A stretch of 34,923 nucleotides of DNA, filler included, from Nitrospinae bacterium RIFCSPLOWO2_12_FULL_45_22 (GCA_001803565.1; 2 parts of 2 records of this genome joined end to end with filler, not necessarily neighbours in it); one strand, 5' to 3'. Counted from the first letter of the whole stretch, positions 143 through 24,447 are shown. Notes: generated by a model not told the origin, from the letters alone. Translations and numbers: made by a program.

Positions 143-483
143 GTATTATAAGGGGCTAAAGTTTTATTGTAATCGTTCACCACAGAGCACGCTGAGAACA
201 CAGAGAAAAGATTACTCTTGAAATTTATGTGCTAACCTTCGAATACCATCATTATAGAGCCTTGACATTGATCATTCGTCATAAAACATTGGGCAATGAA
301 CAATGATATAAAAAATTCATTTCCCACAAGGGGATATTTTTCATCCCCCCTTGATAAGGGTTATATCTCATTTTATATGACATTGCAAGACTTGACCCCA
401 TCTGCCCATATAACTTGCCTTCCGGATTCAATTCTGACAAAATATAGAAAACTTTATAATCAATTGTTAGGGATTAAAACTAT

Positions 484-864
484 ATGACAAGGAAAAATCC
501 GTTTGCCCAATATGAAGAGTGGGGAGAAGAAAAAGTGCGTCACCTTTTGGCTACAGGTAGAATTCAACCTGGAAGTGAGAGTCATAACAAAATGTCCTCA
601 TGGTTAAAATTATTGGATGATAAACGTACCGTAGTGCAGGCAGTACGGGCTGAAACACGGGAAGAAGAAACCCTTTCCATTTCTCGCAAAGCCTTACAAG
701 CTTCCGAAGAGGCTAATTCAATTGCATCAAAAGCGCGATTTGAGGCCCGCCAGGCAAATATTATAGCAATTATCGCTATGATATTAAGTGGGATTATAGC
801 TATCATTGCCACATCAGATAAGCTCATATTATTCCTCCAAGGGCTTGGAATCGTAAGCCTCTAA
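484..864 (+). CDS. Hypothetical membrane-anchored protein, probable integron cassette gene
   Basis: 126-aa ORF with a helical N-part and one hydrophobic C-terminal segment. Core site GTTAGGG (466-472) precedes it and its stop codon lies within the attC R'' box. Confidence 0.7.
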   Translation: MTRKNPFAQYEEWGEEKVRHLLATGRIQPGSESHNKMSSWLKLLDDKRTVVQAVRAETREEETLSISRKALQASEEANSIASKARFEARQANIIAIIAMILSGIIAIIATSDKLILFLQGLGIVSL

Positions 865-907
865 CAAGTCATTGGAGCTGACGGCGAAACGTCGCAGCCC
901 GTTAGGA
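859..907 (+). other. Degenerate attC site (L' side partly deleted)
   Basis: CTCTAAC...GCTG-A-CGGCG AAA CGTCG-CAGC...GTTAGGA. R'', R' and the inner stem are present, but the site is only 49 bp and lacks the complement of CATTGGA. Confidence 0.65.
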
Positions 908-914
908 GGAAATC

Positions 915-1151
915 ATGACAAATGAAGAAATAAAACAGAAACTTGAAGCATCATTTCACCCCTATCGTTGTGTTGCTGAAATATGGGACTACCGTCAAAA
1001 AATACGGTTTCATATCTTTGATCAAAACGATAAACCCATAATTACAGCCCCAGAGATTGTAATACCTAAAATCAACCGTGAATCCTGGTTGTCTTCTCTT
1101 ATCAGACAAACTAAAGATGAAATTAAGAGAAAAAATTATTTTATTGATTAG
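915..1151 (+). CDS. Small hypothetical protein, probable cassette gene
   Basis: 78-aa ORF with AGGAGG RBS overlapping the GTTAGGA core site. Confidence 0.7.
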   Translation: MTNEEIKQKLEASFHPYRCVAEIWDYRQKIRFHIFDQNDKPIITAPEIVIPKINRESWLSSLIRQTKDEIKRKNYFID

Positions 1152-1371
1152 GCGTGTAACAACCGGCAATTATCTTTACTATGCAACCATTACTGGCCTT
1201 AAACCGCACGCATTCACCATCTACCTCAAATGGCGTTCCATCAATTTCTTTGGCGTTATCACGGGCGAGAGCGTCAGCATACTCACGTAGAGCTGTAGGA
1301 ACGGCATGGCAAAAAGCATCCTGCTCTTCTTGCAATCGTTCAACCATAATATTCAAAAGGCGGTAAATCAT
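1141..1371 (-). CDS. Small hypothetical protein, reverse-oriented cassette gene
   Basis: 76-aa ORF with AGGGGGTGA RBS on the minus strand. Lies between the TTAGGCG remnant (~1148) and the attC at 1383. Confidence 0.5.
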   Translation of the reverse strand: MIYRLLNIMVERLQEEQDAFCHAVPTALREYADALARDNAKEIDGTPFEVDGECVRFKASNGCIVKIIAGCYTPNQ

Positions 1372-1382
1372 AATTAATCACC

Positions 1383-1442
1383 CCCTAACCAGCGGCTGGA
1401 CTTGACCGGGGAAGCCCCGGCAAGTCAGCCGTTACGTTAGGC
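1383..1442 (+). other. attC integron recombination site
   Basis: CCCTAAC-CAG-CGGCTG-g-ACTTG-a-CCGGGG-AAG-CCCCGG-CAAGT-CAGCCG-TTAC-GTTAGGC: 60 bp, R''/R' boxes, unpaired spacer and two extrahelical bases. Confidence 0.85.
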
Positions 1443-1491
1443 GTGACGTGAGGGCCTGATGGAACATTTGTCAATGTCTATAGCGGAGGTA

Positions 1492-1636
1492 ATGGCAGGT
1501 TTGGACTGGAGTGCTTGGGTGACCGCTTTGGCCACTCTTGTATTGGCCATCCTCACATTCGTGTACGTCAGGCTTACCAAAAAGATTCTTGATGCTCAAT
1601 CTGACCCCTGCGTTGTTCTTACCGTAGTGCACACGA
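1492..1636 (+). pseudogene. 3'-truncated cassette gene (N-terminal TM helix) interrupted by a small IR element
   Basis: GGAGGT RBS before ATG 1492; reads MAGLDWSAWVTALATLVLAILTFVYVRLTKKILDAQSDPCVV. The frame then runs into the repeat at 1637. Confidence 0.55.
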
Positions 1637-1800
1637 TGTGGCTATTTTCTGTCAGAAATCCATTAATAAGGGTAGCGGCAGAGATTGTCTCTACTTTCAT
1701 CCTCCAATGGCAAAGGCAAGCTTTGCAGCTACATTTGATCGGCATTGTTAACCCCGGATTCAGGGTTATTATATAAGCTTTATGACAAAGAATAGCCACA
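1637..1800. mobile_element. MITE-like element with 18-bp terminal IRs enclosing a degenerate GTAG REP doublet
   Basis: TGTGGCTATTTTCTGTCA vs TGACAAAGAATAGCCACA (16/18). Inner GTAGCGGCAGAG (1672) ... CTTTGCAGCTAC (1732). The right end recurs at 6093-6118. No target duplication seen. Confidence 0.6.
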
Positions 1801-1863
1801 CCCAATTAATTTTAATGAAATGATCTGATATGTTCTGATTATCAGCATCGGGAGGAATAAATT

Positions 1864-2061
1864 ATGGAGGAATATACCACAGTACCCAGGCTTGTGCGGG
1901 TAAGAGCGCGGGGTCAACTCACGATCCCCCAGGAGATGAGGGAGGCATTAGAGCTTGATGAGCATACGGGTCTCAATATCCTTCGGGTTGGCAAGGTATT
2001 GCTTATGACTCCAAAGCGATTGCAACGGGCCTCGCTGGCCGCAGAAGTGGAGCGGGAGTAG
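1864..2061 (+). CDS. AbrB/MazE/SpoVT-family DNA-binding protein (orphan antitoxin-like, possibly truncated)
   Basis: VRVRARGQLTIPQEMREALEL swapped-hairpin motif; GGAGG RBS. Confidence 0.8.
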   Translation: MEEYTTVPRLVRVRARGQLTIPQEMREALELDEHTGLNILRVGKVLLMTPKRLQRASLAAEVERE

Positions 2062-2115
2062 CTTTTTTGGTTCTTTTCTGGTTACACAGCGTGTGCACCG
2101 GATTCAGGAGGTTAG

Positions 2116-2844
2116 TCAATTAATGGGTAGGTCAATGATAAAAGAAGTTCCTTTGCCCACTTGACTTTCAACCTGTATATTACCGGAATGATTTAGTATT
2201 ATGCCATAAGTAGCAGTGAGGCCTAATCCTGTACCTTCGCCCAGGCGTTTAGTAGTAAAAAATGGATCAAATATTTTATCTATGTTTTTTCCTTTAATCC
2301 CTACACCCGTATCCTTAATTATCACCCGGATACTATTATTGTGGGGTTCAGTCTTAATATAAAGCCTTCCCCCGCCAGGCATAGCATCCTTAGCATTATT
2401 AAATAAGTTTAAGAAGGCTTCCATTATCTGGTTGCGGTTGCATTTAATTGCTGGTATCTCTGGATAATATTTTTTTATTATTCTAACATTCTTAAAATGT
2501 TCAAGGGTTTCTACCTGAGAAGCGGTTGCGTCTAGAATAGAATTGATGTTTAGTGATGATTTTTCCTTTCTCTCATCCACCGTACGGACAAAATTCAAAA
2601 AATTATTAACAATCTCTTTGATGCGATTTGCACTATTCATCATGGATTTTAAACACACCAGCATTTCATTATCCAGTTTTTCCTCTGACATTAGCAACAG
2701 TTGGAGATAATTACTGATGCAGCACAAGGGGTTATTGATCTCATGAGCGATACCTGCCCCTAGTTCACCTAAAGCTAGCATCTTTTCTGCGTGAACTAAC
2801 TGCTTGTGGGTCTCCTTATCAACAACGAAATTTTTCTTCTTCAT
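2116..2844 (-). CDS. Sensor-less NtrB-like histidine kinase (HisKA + HATPase)
   Basis: H-box AGIAHEINNPL, N-box LNLFNNAKDA, G1 DTGVGI, F-box FDPFFTTK, G2 GTGLGL. Confidence 0.93.
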   Translation of the reverse strand: MKKKNFVVDKETHKQLVHAEKMLALGELGAGIAHEINNPLCCISNYLQLLLMSEEKLDNEMLVCLKSMMNSANRIKEIVNNFLNFVRTVDERKEKSSLNINSILDATASQVETLEHFKNVRIIKKYYPEIPAIKCNRNQIMEAFLNLFNNAKDAMPGGGRLYIKTEPHNNSIRVIIKDTGVGIKGKNIDKIFDPFFTTKRLGEGTGLGLTATYGIILNHSGNIQVESQVGKGTSFIIDLPIN

Positions 2845-2959
2845 ATCTTTTCTCTACCCGTTTTGGGCCTATCTATTATCCCGACTTTGGTAGTCTAGCT
2901 CATCATGAATTTCGGATAGACTATAGTGTATACCCCCAGTAAATCTTGGATCTCTCCTC

Positions 2960-3364
2960 TTAGTCAAACCTTACATCCCATTTCCCAAATGATGCCCTCT
3001 CATCAAGCATTCTTGGGCCAAAGAAACCTATCTCTTTTCTAAGATTGAAAATTTCCATCTGTTCCAATAATCTGGGGTCCAGATTTATAACGTTGATACT
3101 TCCCTTCTGATTAATCTTTGTCATTTCGTAGTAAGCATCATATAAGAGTTCAAAAATGTTAAAGTTTATCTTGTCAAGAAATGCCCCATTGATAATAATA
3201 TTCTTTTTCCCTTTTCTAATCGGCTCCATCAAGATTTCTTTGAACTCAAATATATTATTGCCATTTATCTCTCCTTCCCAATTGACAAATTCTATGGTGG
3301 AAAGGTCATTCACTAAGAAGGGTCTTATTAGGCACTTTTTATATTCCCGGCCCTCTATTACCAC
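2960..3364 (-). CDS. STAS / anti-sigma-factor-antagonist-like protein (possibly the C-terminal part of the upstream gene via UGA recoding)
   Basis: EGEINGNNIFEFKEIL...KNIIING..LDKIN...INVINLDPRLLEQMEIFNL follows the STAS pattern; the DSSG phospho-Ser motif is absent. Confidence 0.65.
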   Translation of the reverse strand: MVIEGREYKKCLIRPFLVNDLSTIEFVNWEGEINGNNIFEFKEILMEPIRKGKKNIIINGAFLDKINFNIFELLYDAYYEMTKINQKGSINVINLDPRLLEQMEIFNLRKEIGFFGPRMLDERASFGKWDVRFD

Positions 3365-3436
3365 CCAATTTCCTTTATAACCGCATCTGTCTTTCTTTAA
3401 GCAATAATATCCTCCGTGATATACCTGAGCAAAGAG

Positions 3437-4237
3437 TCAGCGCGATACAGATTCTGGTTTGTTCTTAAGATTTTGCCTCTCTTGCTCAACTCTTTCTTTA
3501 CTTTCTTCCAGACATCTTTCAATTACCTGCTCTATTTTATTTGGGCTATCCCCAAAAAGAATGCAGTCATCCGCACCGTAAGCAAAAAGCATGTCTCTAA
3601 TTTGATCAAACTCTGACTCATCAGCAACTATAACAATAGGATATCCCTCTCTACCTTTCTTTTTATTTCTCTCCAATAATTTGGGTGCCAATGGGTTATT
3701 TATTTCGATTAAGATTACATCCGGAGCCTCTTCTGAAATCTTCTTTAGCATTTGGTTTAAATTATCTTCTTTTCCTGAATAGAGACTGATTTGATAGGTT
3801 GATAATTGATCTTTGAGTCTGTTAAAGAGTGTTTGAGAAGCCAACAGTAATTTCTTTTTCTCATCCTCAATTTCTTTATTTTGGGTTAGTCTTTCAATAA
3901 GTAATTTCACATCCCCCGGATTATAAGGTTTTTTAAGGTAGTCTACTGCCCCATATTTTTTTGCATTAAGGAGAGTATCTATGCCTGGATAACCTGTTAC
4001 CATTATAGTCTTAACCTGAGGGGAGCGCTCCCTCAATCTCCGCAAAAAATCAATACCATTCATCTGTGGCATCATAATGTCAGTAATGACTATCTCCGTA
4101 TCCTCAGTTATTTTCTCTAACCCTTCCTGGGCACTGATTGCCGTTACAGTACAAAACCCTTCCTTCTGTAAGTATTCGCTAAGAGAAACCGCTATACTAG
4201 AGTCATCGTCAACTATTAAAATATTCTTATTACCCAA
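3437..4237 (-). CDS. Response regulator: receiver + pseudo-receiver + coiled coil
   Basis: ILIVDDD, ITDIMMPQMNG, MVTG, DYLKKP. Second degenerate REC (PDVILIEI...PIVIV...GADDCI). GAGGGGGG RBS before TTG. Confidence 0.92.
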   Translation of the reverse strand: MGNKNILIVDDDSSIAVSLSEYLQKEGFCTVTAISAQEGLEKITEDTEIVITDIMMPQMNGIDFLRRLRERSPQVKTIMVTGYPGIDTLLNAKKYGAVDYLKKPYNPGDVKLLIERLTQNKEIEDEKKKLLLASQTLFNRLKDQLSTYQISLYSGKEDNLNQMLKKISEEAPDVILIEINNPLAPKLLERNKKKGREGYPIVIVADESEFDQIRDMLFAYGADDCILFGDSPNKIEQVIERCLEESKERVEQERQNLKNKPESVSR

Positions 4238-4394
4238 GGAATATCCCCCCTCTAGGATTTATTTACCCCGATACCATTAAACCCTTATTCTTGAGGTTTT
4301 CTAATGGGTACATTAATTTAATATCTCTTTTAGGGATCATCTTGAAATTTGTAGGTAACTACCAGACACCAAGGAGACAAAAACCCATAATTTA

Positions 4395-4423
4395 TAATCG
4401 GCATTTCTCTCCAATAAATTTAG
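4395..4423 (-). promoter_or_regulatory. Putative sigma28 (FliA/SigD)-type promoter
   Basis: Minus strand CTAAA-N16-GCCGATTA, ~160 nt upstream of the response-regulator start. Confidence 0.55.
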
Positions 4424-4637
4424 GGAAATAATTCCCATTACATTAAAAATCCCCTCAAGGAGTGCCTACCAGTAATTAGGACTAGGCATCGGCGCGGAAA
4501 TCAGTATAATATCTGAGTAAGCCTTCCCGTAGAGACTTGGTTACTGGTCATTGGTTAATAATTAATGACTGATGACTATTTATTCTCGGCGCTTTGTAGC
4601 GCATAATTTATGATAACCTATCAGGTAGGAGGAAGAG

Positions 4638-5978
4638 ATGGCTAGATTAAAAACAACTAGAGTGGTTTTGGGCTTATTTTTGTTACCTTTAACCTTCTTT
4701 TTTAGCGAGGCTTTTGCCGAATATGGCGATCCGACGGCAGAAGAGCAATATATGCTGGAGCTGATAAATAGGGCCCGGGCCAACCCCGCCGAGGAGGGAC
4801 AACGCTTCGCATATACCAATGATACTGACGTACAGAATGCTATAAATTATTTTGCGGTCAATATATCTACCATGATAGCCGAATTTAATTCTTATCCTAC
4901 CCATCCGCCGCTGACCTTTGACAAGAGGTTAATAGATATGGCCCGCTTTCATTCGGACGATATGCTAAAGTATAATTACCAGGGGCATACTGGCTCAGGG
5001 GGTGATACCCTGACTGATCGGCTCAAGCTTTTTGGCTACGATTATTCATCTGCTGCGGAAAACGTTTATGCCTATGCAAAATCTCTCTTTTATGGCCATG
5101 CAGGATTCATGGTAGACTGGGGAGTTCCCGATTTAGGACACAGGAAGAACCTCCTTGAATTTACTAAAACTGGTAGCATACACAAGGAAATCGGCATCGG
5201 TATTGTCCATACAGTTACTTCCTCGACCTTCAAAAATCTTTTAAAATTCCAACCCCCGGGTATTTTTCTCCAGGCAACCGTGGGCCCCATAATTATAACC
5301 GAGAACTTTGCCCTATCTCGCTCGATGACCCAGGGCCCTTCTCTTCTAGGGGTAATATATGACGATAAAAATGGCAATAATTTCTATGATATCGGTGAAG
5401 GTCTAAAGGGTGTCACGGTAGAATCGGATAATGGTCAATCTACCACTACTTCCACTAGCGGTGGGTATTCTATGGAAATAACCTCTCCCGGTAGTTATAT
5501 AGTAAAAGCCACAGGTGGCGGATTATCATATCCCCTTACCAAAACTGTCGAGATAGCCGATAAGAATGTTAAAGTAGATTTTCTAGCTTCAGAATCTCAG
5601 GCTAATACATTACTATCCTTATCCTTATCTAAAAGCGCATATTTGGTCGGTGAAGCTGTAACCCTGTATGTGAGTGTGTATCCCGGGATAGATATTGAGA
5701 GCGCCGATGTATATCTAGTATTGGTCTATCCAGATATAAGCTTTAGGAGCGTGACAGATATTGATGGTTCATTAGGGGAACAGAATAAGGCCGTTGCCCT
5801 GGCTAAATCCTGGCCTGTTACTGCGGTTTCTGCCTATCCCCTGTTCCAGAAGACTTTCCAGCTTACGGATCAGAAGGGGAAATATCAGTTATTCCTTATC
5901 CTGGTTAAACCAGGCGCTGATCCTTTAAATATCTTTAACTGGCTGACCTATAAGGATGTCAGTTTTTCGCTACAATAA
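4638..5978 (+). CDS. Secreted CAP/SCP-domain protein with beta-sandwich C-terminal domains
   Basis: Signal peptide ending AFA; EQYMLELINRARANP, ARFHSDDM, GHTG, AENV, GHRKNLL, EIGIG. GVIYDDKNGNNFYDIGEGL resembles an SdrD-B-like repeat. AGGAGG RBS. Confidence 0.85.
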   Translation: MARLKTTRVVLGLFLLPLTFFFSEAFAEYGDPTAEEQYMLELINRARANPAEEGQRFAYTNDTDVQNAINYFAVNISTMIAEFNSYPTHPPLTFDKRLIDMARFHSDDMLKYNYQGHTGSGGDTLTDRLKLFGYDYSSAAENVYAYAKSLFYGHAGFMVDWGVPDLGHRKNLLEFTKTGSIHKEIGIGIVHTVTSSTFKNLLKFQPPGIFLQATVGPIIITENFALSRSMTQGPSLLGVIYDDKNGNNFYDIGEGLKGVTVESDNGQSTTTSTSGGYSMEITSPGSYIVKATGGGLSYPLTKTVEIADKNVKVDFLASESQANTLLSLSLSKSAYLVGEAVTLYVSVYPGIDIESADVYLVLVYPDISFRSVTDIDGSLGEQNKAVALAKSWPVTAVSAYPLFQKTFQLTDQKGKYQLFLILVKPGADPLNIFNWLTYKDVSFSLQ

Positions 5979-6200: not shown

Positions 6201-7847
6201 ATGCCTCTCACATACCCGGCCAAGCAGCCTCACCTGGCGGTTATCCAACTAGGCCGCCTAGGGGATATGATACAATCCACGTTGGCCCTCAAGGCATTAC
6301 GCCAGCAAAACCCCGCTGCTCACCTCAGCCTGATCGCCTTTAAACCCTTTGTCAAGGTATTGGCCCACTGGCCGGTCATTGATGAGGTTATTACCCTTGA
6401 TCAATCTGAATGGTCTTACCTGACCGAGCCTAATGCCTGGGATAGTGCTACCTATGCCCCGGTAGTCAATGCCTTTGCCAAGAAATTAAATAAATTTGAT
6501 CGGGTCTACAATCTAACTTTTAACGAGCTTGCCTCTTATCTGGCTTACTCCCTCGCTAAGCCTAACCAGGTAACGGGCTTTACCCTGGATGATGTAGGAA
6601 ACTTTGTCTGTGCTAGCGATTGGGGACAATACCTGACAGCAAGTTTGGACTTTCGTTTACTTAATCCCTTTAATCTCGTGGACCTTTTTGTCTTGATGGT
6701 GCAGGGGTACCCCTTCTCTGGTACGCTGCATGTATCTAGCAGTAATATAGACCAAGCATCAACCTTGCTCCCAGCCAATTGCGATGATACTATCATGATC
6801 GCCTTGCAATGTGGCGCCAGTAGAAACCAGCGTTGCTGGCCCCTAGAACAGTTTGCCTCCTTAGCCAATATCCTGACCGATCATCCCAGGGTGCGGCTCG
6901 TATTTGTGGGTACAGAGGACGAAGGACCCCTTGTAGCTCAGATTATCTTATTGATGAAGGACAAACAGCGGGCCATCAATCTGACTGGCCAAACTCAGCT
7001 TAGCCAACTGGCCGATGTCATCAGGCAGGTGCGCCTTGTGGTGGGTAACGATACCGGTACGATGCATCTAGCCGCCGCAGTAGGCACTCCTACAGTGACC
7101 ATCTTTTTGGATTATGCCCATTTCTGGGAGACTGGACCGTATGGTTTTGATCATCTGGTCCTACAGGCCGCTCCACCCCAATATCCTTCCCAGGCAACCA
7201 TTTGGGGTCAATCATCCAGCCAGATTAGTACCACCGCGGTAGCCATCTGCATAAGTCAGTTAGTACCAGAATTGCAATCGCTAACCATAAGTAGCCCAAA
7301 TAATCAGTTGCCCTGTTATCGCTCACGCCACCTCTGGGGGCAATTAGATTATGTCCCTATTGATTCGGGAGCTGGGGCGTTGGATGATGCCTTACGGCTT
7401 ATTTATCGCTGGGTATGGCTTTCGGCCCTTTGCCCGCCAGACCAATTTACTATACCGTTAGATACTTTAATAGAGACTTTACCGCAAAGTTTTATCCTGA
7501 CCGCTGAAATCTTTGCAGGTCTTTGGCAGACCAGGACAAAGGCCCAAAAGGTCTCGCGGGAATTAGAGCGTTTTCAAGAAATAGTGGCTTCTTGTGAGCA
7601 GGGGGGGCAAAATTGGGTATTTACCTCTCTGGGCATATCACTACCTCAACCACTAGGGCCTATCTTGCAGGAATGGGAAAAAGATATCCAGTCAAAAGTA
7701 AGGCCCATCACAAGTTTTTTGCTATGGCAAATGCGAAACCATCTCGCTACCGGCCTTCCTGAAACCATCAGTAGTTATCTTAGTAATATCCAAACCGCCA
7801 GCCGCGCAACCCAGGCATTAATCAAGGCCCTAGATAAAATATTGTAG
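6201..7847 (+). CDS. Glycosyltransferase family 9 (heptosyltransferase-like) with C-terminal extension
   Basis: IQLGRLGDMIQS, GASRNQRCWP, NLTGQT, VGNDTGTMHLAAAVGTP. Start taken at ATG 6201. Confidence 0.9.
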   Translation: MPLTYPAKQPHLAVIQLGRLGDMIQSTLALKALRQQNPAAHLSLIAFKPFVKVLAHWPVIDEVITLDQSEWSYLTEPNAWDSATYAPVVNAFAKKLNKFDRVYNLTFNELASYLAYSLAKPNQVTGFTLDDVGNFVCASDWGQYLTASLDFRLLNPFNLVDLFVLMVQGYPFSGTLHVSSSNIDQASTLLPANCDDTIMIALQCGASRNQRCWPLEQFASLANILTDHPRVRLVFVGTEDEGPLVAQIILLMKDKQRAINLTGQTQLSQLADVIRQVRLVVGNDTGTMHLAAAVGTPTVTIFLDYAHFWETGPYGFDHLVLQAAPPQYPSQATIWGQSSSQISTTAVAICISQLVPELQSLTISSPNNQLPCYRSRHLWGQLDYVPIDSGAGALDDALRLIYRWVWLSALCPPDQFTIPLDTLIETLPQSFILTAEIFAGLWQTRTKAQKVSRELERFQEIVASCEQGGQNWVFTSLGISLPQPLGPILQEWEKDIQSKVRPITSFLLWQMRNHLATGLPETISSYLSNIQTASRATQALIKALDKIL

Positions 7848-13073: not shown

Positions 13074-15683
13074 TTATTGCCCCTTTAACTCTATATAATC
13101 AAAAACTAGCGCTAAGTCTGGTGGATTACCCACACTGACCATTTGGGATAGCTCTTTGCCGGCACTCTCTAAAGCAGTGCCTGCTGCCGCCCCTTTTACG
13201 CCTATTATTGCATGGCCCCACCAATATTTATTTCTTAAGTCATAACCGGTACCAATCGTTTTTAGGGCATCTACTGCCTTGAGGGTCAGTTTCCTTGATG
13301 CCTCATCCTTAACCGCTACCGCCACTATTTTCCCTTTCGGTATCTTCTCTATAAACTTAGCTAATCTTTCAGATTCTTTTGCATCAAGATAAGTGTCAAA
13401 CCCATCTACCGCTTCGACGCTCCCGGTCTTGGGATTAATTATAGCCAGGTTATAGCCCCGTTTTTGAGGGGAGACATTTTTCCCATTTATCAGAATATGG
13501 CCAAAATATCCGCACAGAAATCCGGCACTGTTAACGATAATGTTCACGGGGGATCTTAATCCTATGTCTCCGATAAAATTGGCATTTGGTGAGGGCTTTG
13601 TATACAGAGCCGAATATCGTAATTTAATCAGATTAAGACCTTCATGGAAAAACCCGGGTGGGATTTTTAAAAGATATTGGTGCCAGCCTTTGTTTATTTT
13701 CCAGCTTGAGAGATATTGATCTTTTATATATAGTTCTAGGGAACCCCATTCTGAGGTAATAGGTTTAATTTTCATGGTCATTGTCATTTCGGATTTAGGC
13801 AGAGGATTCCCCAGGTGGAAAAAGATCTCAGATTTTTGGTAGCCCATGGGCCTATAATATGTTTCACCATTCCATTTTGCGCTATCCAACCAGCCTCTGC
13901 CTAAATAGATATTTGATAAGCTGTCGCCAAAGCTAATAGAGATATTGACGGTATCTCTTTTATCCCGTTGAACAACTTTATAAACTATAAGTTTACTATT
14001 CTGACAAATCTTTTCTAAATCCAGGACTTTTTCTAAATAATCAATTATATAAAAAGCATAAGGTAGATGAACGATAATATAGTGAATATTTAGAGCCGGC
14101 ATGGACTCTTTAAATATTATTCTGTCTCTGGCGATAGTATCAGCCGTAACATTAATCATCCCATCTTCTTTTATAGAGGAGAGCCTTTTTACAAAAGGGA
14201 GATTAGAATAATATTTTAAATTATCCGGATGGCGCCGGGATAAGAGGGTATTGAATATGCGCTTTTCATGGCCTATCTGATCCAGGGAGGCATCAGCCTC
14301 GAGAGAGGTAATCTCCCAGATCTGAAAATCACCGCTTTGTTTAGCTATCTGTTCAAATATCTTGGGCTTATGGTAATGATACAACTCGATGGGCAAATTC
14401 AGATATTCGAAAGATATTAAGCCACCAATTAACAATACAACTACCACCCCCCTTCTTTGACTTTGAAGCCTAAATAATATTTCCTTAATAGAGTAAGCGG
14501 CCAAGATAGCGGCTGATAGCATTACCATTATATTAAAGCGGCTTGCTGCCCTCACCCCATTGATAACTGGGATATATTGCAATAGTAGGTATGGGAGCGG
14601 GATTCTGAATTCCTTCCCATTTATATGCAGGTAAGGCCCTAATGACAGAAGCATAAAAGTTAGGAAGGCAATGGTCCATAATTGAATGCCCTTCTCTTTT
14701 CGAAATCTAATCATACAATAAATAGACAGGAGTAAGACAGCGTAACCAGCAAAGACCACACCTTCGACACCGCTATGCTGGAGAAATTTGCCGTGACTCC
14801 AGGAATATAGATTTAGGGTATCCCGGTATTTCCCGAAAATACCTAAAAAAGGATGCCAGGGGCTGGGAGAAATATATCCTCGTAAGTCTGCTACAAACAA
14901 ATTCTGTCCCCACATCTGATAATAATGAGGACCTTTATCTAGCTCGCTTATTATGGTAACCAATACCGGGGAAAATAGGGCACTGAAGATCAATATTATT
15001 AGGATTAAATTTTTTACTATTACGGAATAATTTACCTTTTTTATAATGACAAGATGAAAAAAATAAATTAATGTAAATATAATTAGATAAATTAAATAAT
15101 AATAATCACATAATGCAGTTAATGCCAGGAATAGTCCTGCCAGAAGAGGATTCATGGCTCGGGGTTTTTCTTCGTTAGATTTAATTAGATAGAGGATATA
15201 GAAGGGCATCCATTCGGTGCTGGTCAGGTTAAAATGTCCTTTTAAATGGGCAAATATGTAGGGACAAAAGGCAAATATTAATCCGGCAATAAAAGCACCG
15301 ATTTTATTTTTAGTAAGATATTCAGCTAATAAATAAGCACCATATGCAGAGAAAACAAAGGAAAAAATGATTATTATATTATTAGCAATGACAATGTTAA
15401 ACAGAAGCTGTAAAGGTATGGAGAGTAATCCATTGAACAAGGTAAGGGCATGAAAAACTAAACTATGGCCTAAGGGATAGAAGATATAATCACAATATAA
15501 AGGATTAGTCCGGATCTCTATCAGTGCTTTCTTTATCCACCATAGATTCCATAGGAATACGAAATTATCACCACCGCTGCCGGGTATATGGGTAGAGAAA
15601 TTTAATGCCAATGGATAGGTAAAGGTCAAGGTCAAGGCTAAGTAAGCCGCCAATAATAAGGGCTTAGTAATTTTTATCTTCAT
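13074..15683 (-). CDS. Polytopic GT-C/YfhO-like membrane protein with C-terminal ILEI (GG/PANDER-like) domain
   Basis: Many hydrophobic segments, GDNFVFLWNLWW first loop, RAASRF. C-terminus RGYNLAIINPKTG...FDTY...IPKGKIVAVAVKDEAS...HAIIGVKG. Confidence 0.78.
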   Translation of the reverse strand: MKIKITKPLLLAAYLALTLTFTYPLALNFSTHIPGSGGDNFVFLWNLWWIKKALIEIRTNPLYCDYIFYPLGHSLVFHALTLFNGLLSIPLQLLFNIVIANNIIIIFSFVFSAYGAYLLAEYLTKNKIGAFIAGLIFAFCPYIFAHLKGHFNLTSTEWMPFYILYLIKSNEEKPRAMNPLLAGLFLALTALCDYYYLIYLIIFTLIYFFHLVIIKKVNYSVIVKNLILIILIFSALFSPVLVTIISELDKGPHYYQMWGQNLFVADLRGYISPSPWHPFLGIFGKYRDTLNLYSWSHGKFLQHSGVEGVVFAGYAVLLLSIYCMIRFRKEKGIQLWTIAFLTFMLLSLGPYLHINGKEFRIPLPYLLLQYIPVINGVRAASRFNIMVMLSAAILAAYSIKEILFRLQSQRRGVVVVLLIGGLISFEYLNLPIELYHYHKPKIFEQIAKQSGDFQIWEITSLEADASLDQIGHEKRIFNTLLSRRHPDNLKYYSNLPFVKRLSSIKEDGMINVTADTIARDRIIFKESMPALNIHYIIVHLPYAFYIIDYLEKVLDLEKICQNSKLIVYKVVQRDKRDTVNISISFGDSLSNIYLGRGWLDSAKWNGETYYRPMGYQKSEIFFHLGNPLPKSEMTMTMKIKPITSEWGSLELYIKDQYLSSWKINKGWHQYLLKIPPGFFHEGLNLIKLRYSALYTKPSPNANFIGDIGLRSPVNIIVNSAGFLCGYFGHILINGKNVSPQKRGYNLAIINPKTGSVEAVDGFDTYLDAKESERLAKFIEKIPKGKIVAVAVKDEASRKLTLKAVDALKTIGTGYDLRNKYWWGHAIIGVKGAAAGTALESAGKELSQMVSVGNPPDLALVFDYIELKGQ

Positions 15684-18050: not shown

Positions 18051-18250
18051 AACCACAAAGACACAAAGGACACAAAGCGAAGTGATGAATTGAAAGTATT
18101 GAGCCAATCCATGAGGCGTAACTTCTGACATATCTTAAACTTTCTAATTTATGGCTTGGACTCTTAATAAATTTTAATGTTCCTGTGCTAAAGGAAGGTA
18201 TCCGTAGGATTGTAAATTGATTTCTTTGTGATCTTTGTGTCTTTGTGGTT
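18051..18250. mobile_element. 9-mer-based inverted-repeat element carrying a GxxExxY remnant
   Basis: AACCACAAAGACACAAAGGACACAAAG 18051-18077 vs CTTTGTGATCTTTGTGTCTTTGTGGTT 18224-18250 (25/27). Confidence 0.65.
18098..18220 (+). pseudogene. C-terminal fragment of a GxxExxY (PD-(D/E)XK-like) protein
   Basis: Manual translation [42 protein letters not shown] stands where the family has Q (AQLLTYLK...GLLINF). Confidence 0.85.
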
Positions 18251-24347: not shown

Positions 24348-24447
24348 NNNNNNNNNNNNNNNNNNNNNNNNNNNNNNNNNNNNNNNNNNNNTTAATTAAT
24401 TAANNNNNNNNNNNNNNNNNNNNNNNNNNNNNNNNNNNNNNNNNNNN
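24348..24447. other. Artificial gap / contig linker
   Basis: 44 N + TTAATTAATTAA (stops in all six frames) + 44 N = 100 bp. Confidence 0.95.

Follow-up and report, generated by a model that had tools for sequence, protein, structure and literature searches.

The closest described counterparts of the gene considered here are the bacterial pairs of selenocysteine (Sec) and cysteine (Cys) proteins, among them DsbA-like proteins, HdrA and SelD, in which an in-frame TGA lies at a conserved Cys, the flanks are conserved and the host carries sel genes together with a tRNA-Sec. These features are shared by a gene located at positions 2960–4237 (minus strand) of a 34,923 nt stretch of DNA, hereafter the window, from Nitrospinae bacterium RIFCSPLOWO2_12_FULL_45_22 (GCA_001803565.1; two parts of two records joined end to end with filler). 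In contrast to the known pairs, no selenocysteine insertion sequence (SECIS) of the consensus type, or resembling the genome's own elements, follows the TGA, the TGA coexists with TGC within one population that is at least 99 % identical, and the product is a signalling protein rather than a redox enzyme. We hold with moderate confidence that the TGA is a truncating allele, TGC to TGA, segregating in an uncharacterised regulator composed of a receiver (REC) domain, a pseudo-REC domain, a four-Cys (Cys4) module and a STAS domain.

Other described systems resemble single parts of the product. The STAS partner-switching proteins RsbV, RsbS and SpoIIAA share the STAS fold of its C-terminal ~120 residues, but here the STAS domain is fused behind the REC/pseudo-REC pair and a four-Cys beta-hairpin module, and the Pfam STAS model scores below threshold. 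PleD-type tandem receivers (REC plus adaptor REC′) likewise consist of an active N-terminal REC followed by a degenerate one and give the best whole-model structural matches, whereas the output here is Cys4-STAS in place of the GGDEF domain of PleD and sequence identity is 17–20 %. In [NiFeSe] hydrogenases, as described in the part of the source consulted (PMC13582414), Sec takes the place of one of the four Cys at a metal site; the present protein is unrelated to these enzymes in fold and function, and their Sec is retained in different lineages together with SECIS elements.

The minus-strand open reading frame (ORF) at 4237–3440 begins with TTG, comprises 266 codons and stops at the TGA of 3439–3437. 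The following 72 nt (3436–3365, minus strand) are free of stops and in frame with a GTG ORF at 3364–2963, which ends with TAA at 2962–2960; the read-through frame is 425 codons long (...PESVSR-U-LFAQVYHGGYYCLKKDRCGYKGNWVVIEGREYKKC...) and predicts the junction peptide SR-U-LFAQVYHGGYYCLK, beginning SR-U-LFAQ. Its Cys motif is U267-x11-C279-x5-C285-x16-C302, and the codons of C279 (3403–3401) and C285 (3385–3383) both lie inside the 72 nt ‘spacer’. The features of the locus are as follows.

3905–4222, minus strand: receiver (REC) domain, residues 6–111 (Pfam PF00072, 103.3 bits, E 1.1e-29; CheY-like by Foldseek)
3464–3853, minus strand: pseudo-REC (residues ~129–227) and long helix (232–258) (AlphaFold2 model; Foldseek)
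3437–3439, minus strand: codon 267, at the column of an invariant Cys; reads TGA in the window, whereas other natural copies have TGC (Cys)
3394–3435, minus strand: interrupted stem loop with apical loop ACGGAG at 3417–3412; candidate SECIS, judged not SECIS-like
3365–3436, minus strand: 72 nt ‘spacer’, codons 268–291; coding in relatives, with invariant A270, G276, C279 and C285
3362–3364, minus strand: GTG, possible restart preceded by AAGGA (3375–3371); 134 aa product without C267, C279 and C285
3332–3334, minus strand: codon of C302, fourth invariant Cys of the motif (alignment of relatives)
2963–3325, minus strand: STAS-fold domain, residues ~305–425 (Foldseek match to RsbV; PDB profile search)
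2116–2844, minus strand: small histidine kinase, HisKA and HATPase_c without a sensor domain (Pfam), 115 nt downstream

The relatives of the protein show a single gene with a Cys at the position of the TGA. A HMMER search of 1.84 billion representative proteins with the C-terminal 158 aa returned 17 matches, seven of them full length (404–439 aa) and extending from REC through the junction to the end of STAS, and a further five, although shorter, also span the junction. Thirteen matches were aligned, leaving out the window's own 134 aa ORF (P0017), a weak 1887 aa match (P0030) and two 81–86 aa fragments that stop short of the motif (P0031 and P0032); of the 13, 12 contain no stop at the junction and carry Cys267, with A270, G276, C279, C285 and C302 invariant. 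A pattern search of GTDB genomes, built on a two-sequence alignment, added seven loci, including four from Methylomirabilota/NC10 metagenome-assembled genomes (MAGs), one from a Candidatus Baltobacteraceae MAG (L190) and one from an unclassified bacterium (L189), and all seven are open across the junction (...TNKC[ML]FAKAYRNGYYC...). In the combined set of 19 relatives, from which an odd 109 aa protein (P0029) was dropped, Cys267, A270, G276, C279, C285 and C302 are invariant throughout, at 21–35 % identity. The two ORFs make up a single ancestral gene of ~425 codons, and no relative examined has a two-gene arrangement at the junction.

Neither the 12 database relatives whose sequence covers this column nor the seven GTDB loci showed a TGA there, a count in which forms split by gene callers could be missed; every copy with the TGA is 99–100 % identical to the window. 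The C-terminal queries were used because a search for relatives with the whole 425 aa protein and searches of genome contigs with P0018 returned REC-domain matches only; a word-index search with residues 240–425 returned only the protein's own cluster. One apparent junction-spanning relative (L049) was rejected, being two adjacent REC genes. The hexamer coding score of the 72 nt spacer in frame (−0.03) is uninformative at such a length.

Both codons are found in nature. Over 2900–4300 the window was compared with Logan contigs, as opposed to raw reads, of four runs, each from a different study: runs X4 and X13 have G at plus-strand position 3437, i.e. TGC on the coding strand, as the sole difference in 1401 nt, and runs X8 and X20 have TGA at codon 267. 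A further copy with the TGA comes from an independent JGI contig (L027). At 90 % identity the gene's product falls in a protein cluster of 23 members; among the 15 listed there are six 266 aa forms (17 contigs) and nine 425 aa forms with Cys267 (12 contigs), all 99–100 % identical to the window. The TGA is not a sequencing error. Although one base is all that separates it from the Cys form, a true TGC everywhere would require the same sequencing or assembly mistake in the window, in L027 and in the X8 and X20 contigs of two further studies, as well as in the several sources of six distinct 266 aa database proteins that imply the TGA, and we give this explanation practically no credence.

The sequence after the TGA does fold into a hairpin, with a 5 bp stem (AUAUC/GAUAU) and a loop, ACGGAG, that starts 20 nt past the UGA, inside the longer interrupted stem at 3435–3394; the stem is made by two conserved Tyr codons (UAU...UAU), as read from the sequence. 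Its stability is unremarkable. In a shuffle test 31 of 200 shuffled sequences fold as well or better (z = −1.07), and the 50 nt that follow the codon have a minimum free energy (MFE) of −8.8 kcal/mol, at the 49th percentile of 1500 Cys-codon sites from the genome's long ORFs. Among seven real Sec sites of the same genome, described below, five fall between the 1.3rd and 14th percentiles, with HdrA at the 23rd and one HGD-D gene (on contig C231) at the 65th. A stem of 6 bp or more, capped 16–37 nt downstream by a loop that contains GU and found at six of the seven real sites and at 8.6 % of 3000 null sites, is absent at the candidate.

The published bacterial SECIS model, in the section of the source used here (PMC13188914), has a loop of 3–9 nt with G in its first two positions, a stem of 4 bp or more, a spacing of 16–37 nt and an MFE of −7.5 or lower. 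ACGGAG has no G at its first two positions and fails these constraints, which, applied to the MFE fold, are satisfied by four of the seven real sites and by 11.8 % of 2000 null sites. A scan of 3250–3550 against Rfam with E up to 10 gave no family, only two chance matches (bxd_4 and sR24). The criteria for calling new selenoproteins in another paper, in the portion consulted (PMC1088965), combine TGA/Cys pairs with a SECIS-like stem loop that carries a G in a small apical loop. The hairpin is judged not to be SECIS-like by the published model or by the genome's own Sec sites. An initial annotation of this DNA, made from its sequence alone, had pointed to the hairpin, with a GG-containing loop ~19 nt after the UGA, as a possible SECIS; the hairpin and its GG are real, with the loop at 20 nt, but its stability is no better than chance and its reading as a SECIS is not supported.

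The genome itself encodes what is needed to make selenoproteins, as judged from its gene content. Both selB (372.3 bits, cut-off 242) and selA (588 bits, cut-off 268) are present, as are selD (401.5 bits), which has an in-frame TGA of its own, and, on contig C247, a tRNA-SeC(tca). Near the end of another contig, C215:213–752 gives a further, partial match to selB (model positions 1–180, 233 bits), just below the cut-off. A genome scan for in-frame TGA codons with coding potential on both sides gave 3419 raw and 157 filtered candidates, of which the top 60 were ranked and 58 sent to Pfam, leaving out the window's own candidate and one on C264. A Pfam domain spans the TGA in six of the 58: one HdrA-like, three of the HGD-D (2-hydroxyglutaryl-CoA dehydratase D-component) family and two DsbA-like. 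The other 52 have no Pfam domain over the TGA, being same-frame adjacent genes where domains flank it, and 19 match no family. Together with SelD, which is recognised by the NCBIfam selD model, the real Sec sites in the genome number at least seven.

Contig C95 (locus L200): Sec gene, TGA at 4215
Contig C231 (L215): Sec gene, TGA at 5490
Contig C148 (L222): Sec gene, TGA at 4010
Contig C53 (L223): Sec gene, TGA at 6918
Contig C282 (L220): Sec gene, TGA at 18085
Contig C222 (L247): Sec gene, TGA at 14429
Contig C19 (L231): selD

The domain make-up of the 425-codon gene is that of a single two-component response regulator of an uncharacterised family. CheY-like receivers match the REC part at template modelling (TM) scores of ~0.85–0.9 in Foldseek, and residues DDD10–12, D53, T81 and K103, read from the sequence, presumably form the acidic pocket and serve the phospho-acceptor reaction. 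With this REC and an adjacent histidine kinase, the protein qualifies as a response regulator on sequence grounds, and the kinase 115 nt downstream is its likely partner. The pseudo-REC part has no Pfam REC match. In an AlphaFold2 model of the whole protein, built on 20 sequences with a mean predicted local distance difference test (pLDDT) score of 86.6, the REC is followed by a REC-like alpha/beta region of alternating strands and helices (129–227), the helix 232–258, Cys-bearing beta-hairpins (strands 270–273, 276–279, 288–294 and 297–302) and the C-terminal alpha/beta domain into which these lead; the best Foldseek matches of the whole model are the tandem REC-REC′ of PleD.

For the C-terminal ~120 residues a STAS fold is predicted by a separate model of the C-terminal part. 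Its best Foldseek match in PDB is RsbV (6m36_H, E 6.2e-5, TMt 0.74, root-mean-square deviation 2.0), followed by RsbS and SpoIIAA, and the latter two also match weakly in a PDB profile search (E 0.02–0.05; RsbS 0.02). In this C-terminal model the STAS core has pLDDT 84–94 and the Cys module 54–56, which is poor. Over the C-terminal 158 residues Pfam STAS (PF01740) scores 13.1 bits (E 0.085), under its threshold of 22.6, ESM Atlas gives weak STAS leads only (≤0.80), and NCBIfam has no model for the whole architecture, with generic REC matches each under cut-off. The module C-x11-C-x5-C-x16–19-C is probably a metal or Fe–S/redox site. These features define an unannotated REC/pseudo-REC/Cys4/STAS regulator family.

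The initial annotation had described a regulator stop at 3437–3439, a 72 nt open spacer holding two Cys codons of a U-x11-C-x5-C-x16-C motif and a 425 aa REC-pseudoREC-coil-Cys-STAS protein. Re-reading of the sequence confirms the former points, and the architecture is borne out by the relatives, AlphaFold2 and Foldseek, the ‘coil’ being the long helix 232–258. It had also looked to homologues continuous across the junction with Cys at residue 267, which all 19 relatives are, and to selA, selB, selD and tRNA-Sec, which the genome contains. Its call for confirmation of the TGA is answered by the independent assemblies L027, X8 and X20, with the qualification that X4 and X13 have TGC; a TGA conserved among homologues, its other expectation, is not seen in the homologues examined outside the 99 %-identical population.

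Histidine kinases adjoin the homologous regulator in both of the two relatives' loci whose neighbours were scanned. In these loci (L188 of NC10, 151–5259, and L189, 282–4694) the regulator lies between a GAF-GAF-HisKA-HATPase kinase upstream and MotA/MotB stator genes downstream, a neighbourhood that hints at a link to motility or to a stator-like proton channel.

The favoured interpretation is that the natural population holds TGC and TGA at the first Cys of the module, the latter being a derived C-to-A nonsense allele, the one carried by the window. Ribosomes would then mostly halt at codon 267 and release a 266 aa REC/pseudo-REC protein without the Cys4-STAS output. Any downstream product would come from leaky read-through at a weak UGA-C context, or from restart at the GTG of 3364, with a STAS fragment that would retain only C302 of the four Cys. 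UGA-C is known to be leaky from work in E. coli, and TGA-C is the rarest context among the genome's real TGA stops (51 of 399). Such an allele would be loss-of-function or hypomorphic, and would be tolerated, or favoured, with selection on the gene relaxed or diversifying. A Cys-to-stop mutation, which the initial annotation had listed as an alternative, is now the more likely reading because the hairpin fails as a SECIS, no TGA is seen in homologues outside the 99 %-identical population and the flanks of the TGC allele are identical. Since those flanks are identical, the downstream sequence does not separate a ‘Sec’ from a Cys allele and no SECIS-specific adaptation is visible; moreover, all outgroups have Cys, which makes Cys the probable ancestral state and would require that a functional SECIS was already there by luck.

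Several observations weigh against a simple nonsense allele and in favour of decoding of the TGA as Sec, i.e. a natural Sec/Cys polymorphism at the first Cys4 ligand in a 425 aa selenoprotein response regulator. The stop coincides exactly with one of the four Cys that all 19 relatives keep, and the sequence is conserved to either side of it; by a rough estimate only a few per cent of single-base nonsense changes would do so, whereas a Sec codon would be expected at precisely such a residue. The organism has the complete machinery and decodes UGA as Sec in other genes. The TGA allele is common, being present in two of the four runs and in both JGI contigs (one of them the window's own), and both alleles persist in several studies. 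They also occur with the same neighbouring variants (R/C71, E/K122, V/L264 and D/N355), which suggests an old polymorphism with recombination, recurrent mutation or a chimeric metagenome consensus. The 134 aa downstream ORFs linked to the TGA (seven variants, 18 contigs) are all intact and in frame, although little decay is expected anyway at ≤1 % divergence. The hairpin itself lies within the published limits on loop (6 nt), stem (5 bp), spacing (19 nt) and MFE (−8.8), a subset of bacterial SECIS elements deviates from the model according to the section of the review used here (PMC13188914), and a genuine Sec site, that of the HGD-D gene on C231, folds more weakly. The [NiFeSe] hydrogenases provide a precedent for Sec in place of a metal-ligand Cys. 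In this case SelB would rely on the weak ACGGAG hairpin or on some non-canonical element, and the 266 aa form would be made when selenium is scarce. However, the hairpin is at the chance median in stability, has no G in its first two loop positions, lacks the stem of at least 6 bp and GU loop of six of the seven real sites and belongs to no Rfam family, and the TGA is absent from all diverged relatives examined, with Cys probably ancestral and the TGC allele's flanks identical. Of the selenocysteine-containing protein initially proposed, the single gene, the TGA on an invariant Cys and the Sec-competent host stand, while the SECIS and a TGA in diverged relatives are missing; we regard decoding as Sec as possible but doubtful. 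Slightly more tentative still is the stronger claim that this would be the first selenoprotein response regulator, with selenium contributing a ligand to a four-Cys metal or redox sensor ahead of the STAS output and a non-consensus SECIS. Neither a response regulator nor a STAS protein containing Sec was found in the literature searched, in which selenocysteine and STAS domains are joined only by papers on plant sulfate transporters; neither ‘response regulator’ nor ‘two-component’ appears in the consulted text of a 2026 review (PMC13188914) and of the deep-Sep paper (PMC12013277), whose supplements could list such a family.

A functional split of the gene into a 266 aa REC/pseudo-REC protein and a 134 aa STAS protein started at GTG 3364 is improbable. 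The GTG is preceded by AAGGA 6 nt upstream, as the initial annotation had pointed out at 7 nt; gene callers do give the 134 aa ORF, intact in every variant, and stand-alone STAS proteins such as RsbV and SpoIIAA are common. Yet three of the Cys that never vary among the 19 relatives, C267, C279 and C285, would be missing from the 134 aa product, which would also, according to the model, lose strands 270–273 and 276–279 and begin inside the third strand (288–294). None of the relatives is arranged as two genes there, and since AAGGA and GTG lie inside the coding sequence of the Cys allele, the site may be fortuitous.

Variation in the gene and among its relatives gives some indication of the relaxed constraint envisaged for the truncating allele. 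L027 differs from the window at four positions within the gene, all nonsynonymous (R71C, A352G, L354F and D355N), and at none in the kinase gene or in the 760 nt upstream of the gene; across the four runs, A205S is the only other single-nucleotide polymorphism in the gene. All DNA-level differences observed in the gene are nonsynonymous. A352G, L354F and D355N of L027 cluster within four STAS codons (window 3175–3183, codons 352–355), and L354F and D355N, the former at a residue that is near-invariant in the family, recur in TGA and Cys alleles alike. Additionally, two of the seven genomic relatives look disrupted, for which MAG assembly errors are a possible cause: L191 has a frame change between REC1 and the linker (~640–1140), and L187 (~2400–2540) is missing the N-terminal half of REC1, with a start inside REC1 just after the stop of the upstream kinase.

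Elsewhere in the window, 25 of its 30 differences from L027, a 99 %-identical contig, fall in 170 nt at 1856–2025, which overlap a plus-strand ORF of 65 aa (1864–2061) without a Pfam match at E 1e-4. The alignment with L027 stops at window position 1852, and 1856–2025 may be the edge of a strain-variable region. The divergent neighbour of the regulator gene (4638–5978, plus strand) encodes 446 aa with CAP (cysteine-rich secretory protein) and SdrD B-like domains and a start that resembles a signal peptide by eye. The window holds two runs of N, 88 bases in all, at 24348–24447, and only its positions 1–24347 correspond to contig C320, the remainder having another origin.

Whichever reading of codon 267 applies, the locus defines an unannotated family of REC/pseudo-REC/Cys4/STAS regulators, situated beside a histidine kinase in the loci examined. 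If the TGA is decoded as Sec, the use of selenium would extend from redox enzymes into two-component signalling, the two alleles would form a natural isogenic Sec/Cys pair with which the contribution of Sec to a metal or redox site could be tested, and the locus would be an example of the birth of a Sec codon. If the TGA is a nonsense allele, it would be a clear instance of a truncating polymorphism that is common in a wild, uncultivated population, and would call for caution in the prediction of selenoproteins, as a genome that uses Sec and a TGA placed on an invariant Cys would together be insufficient evidence for one.

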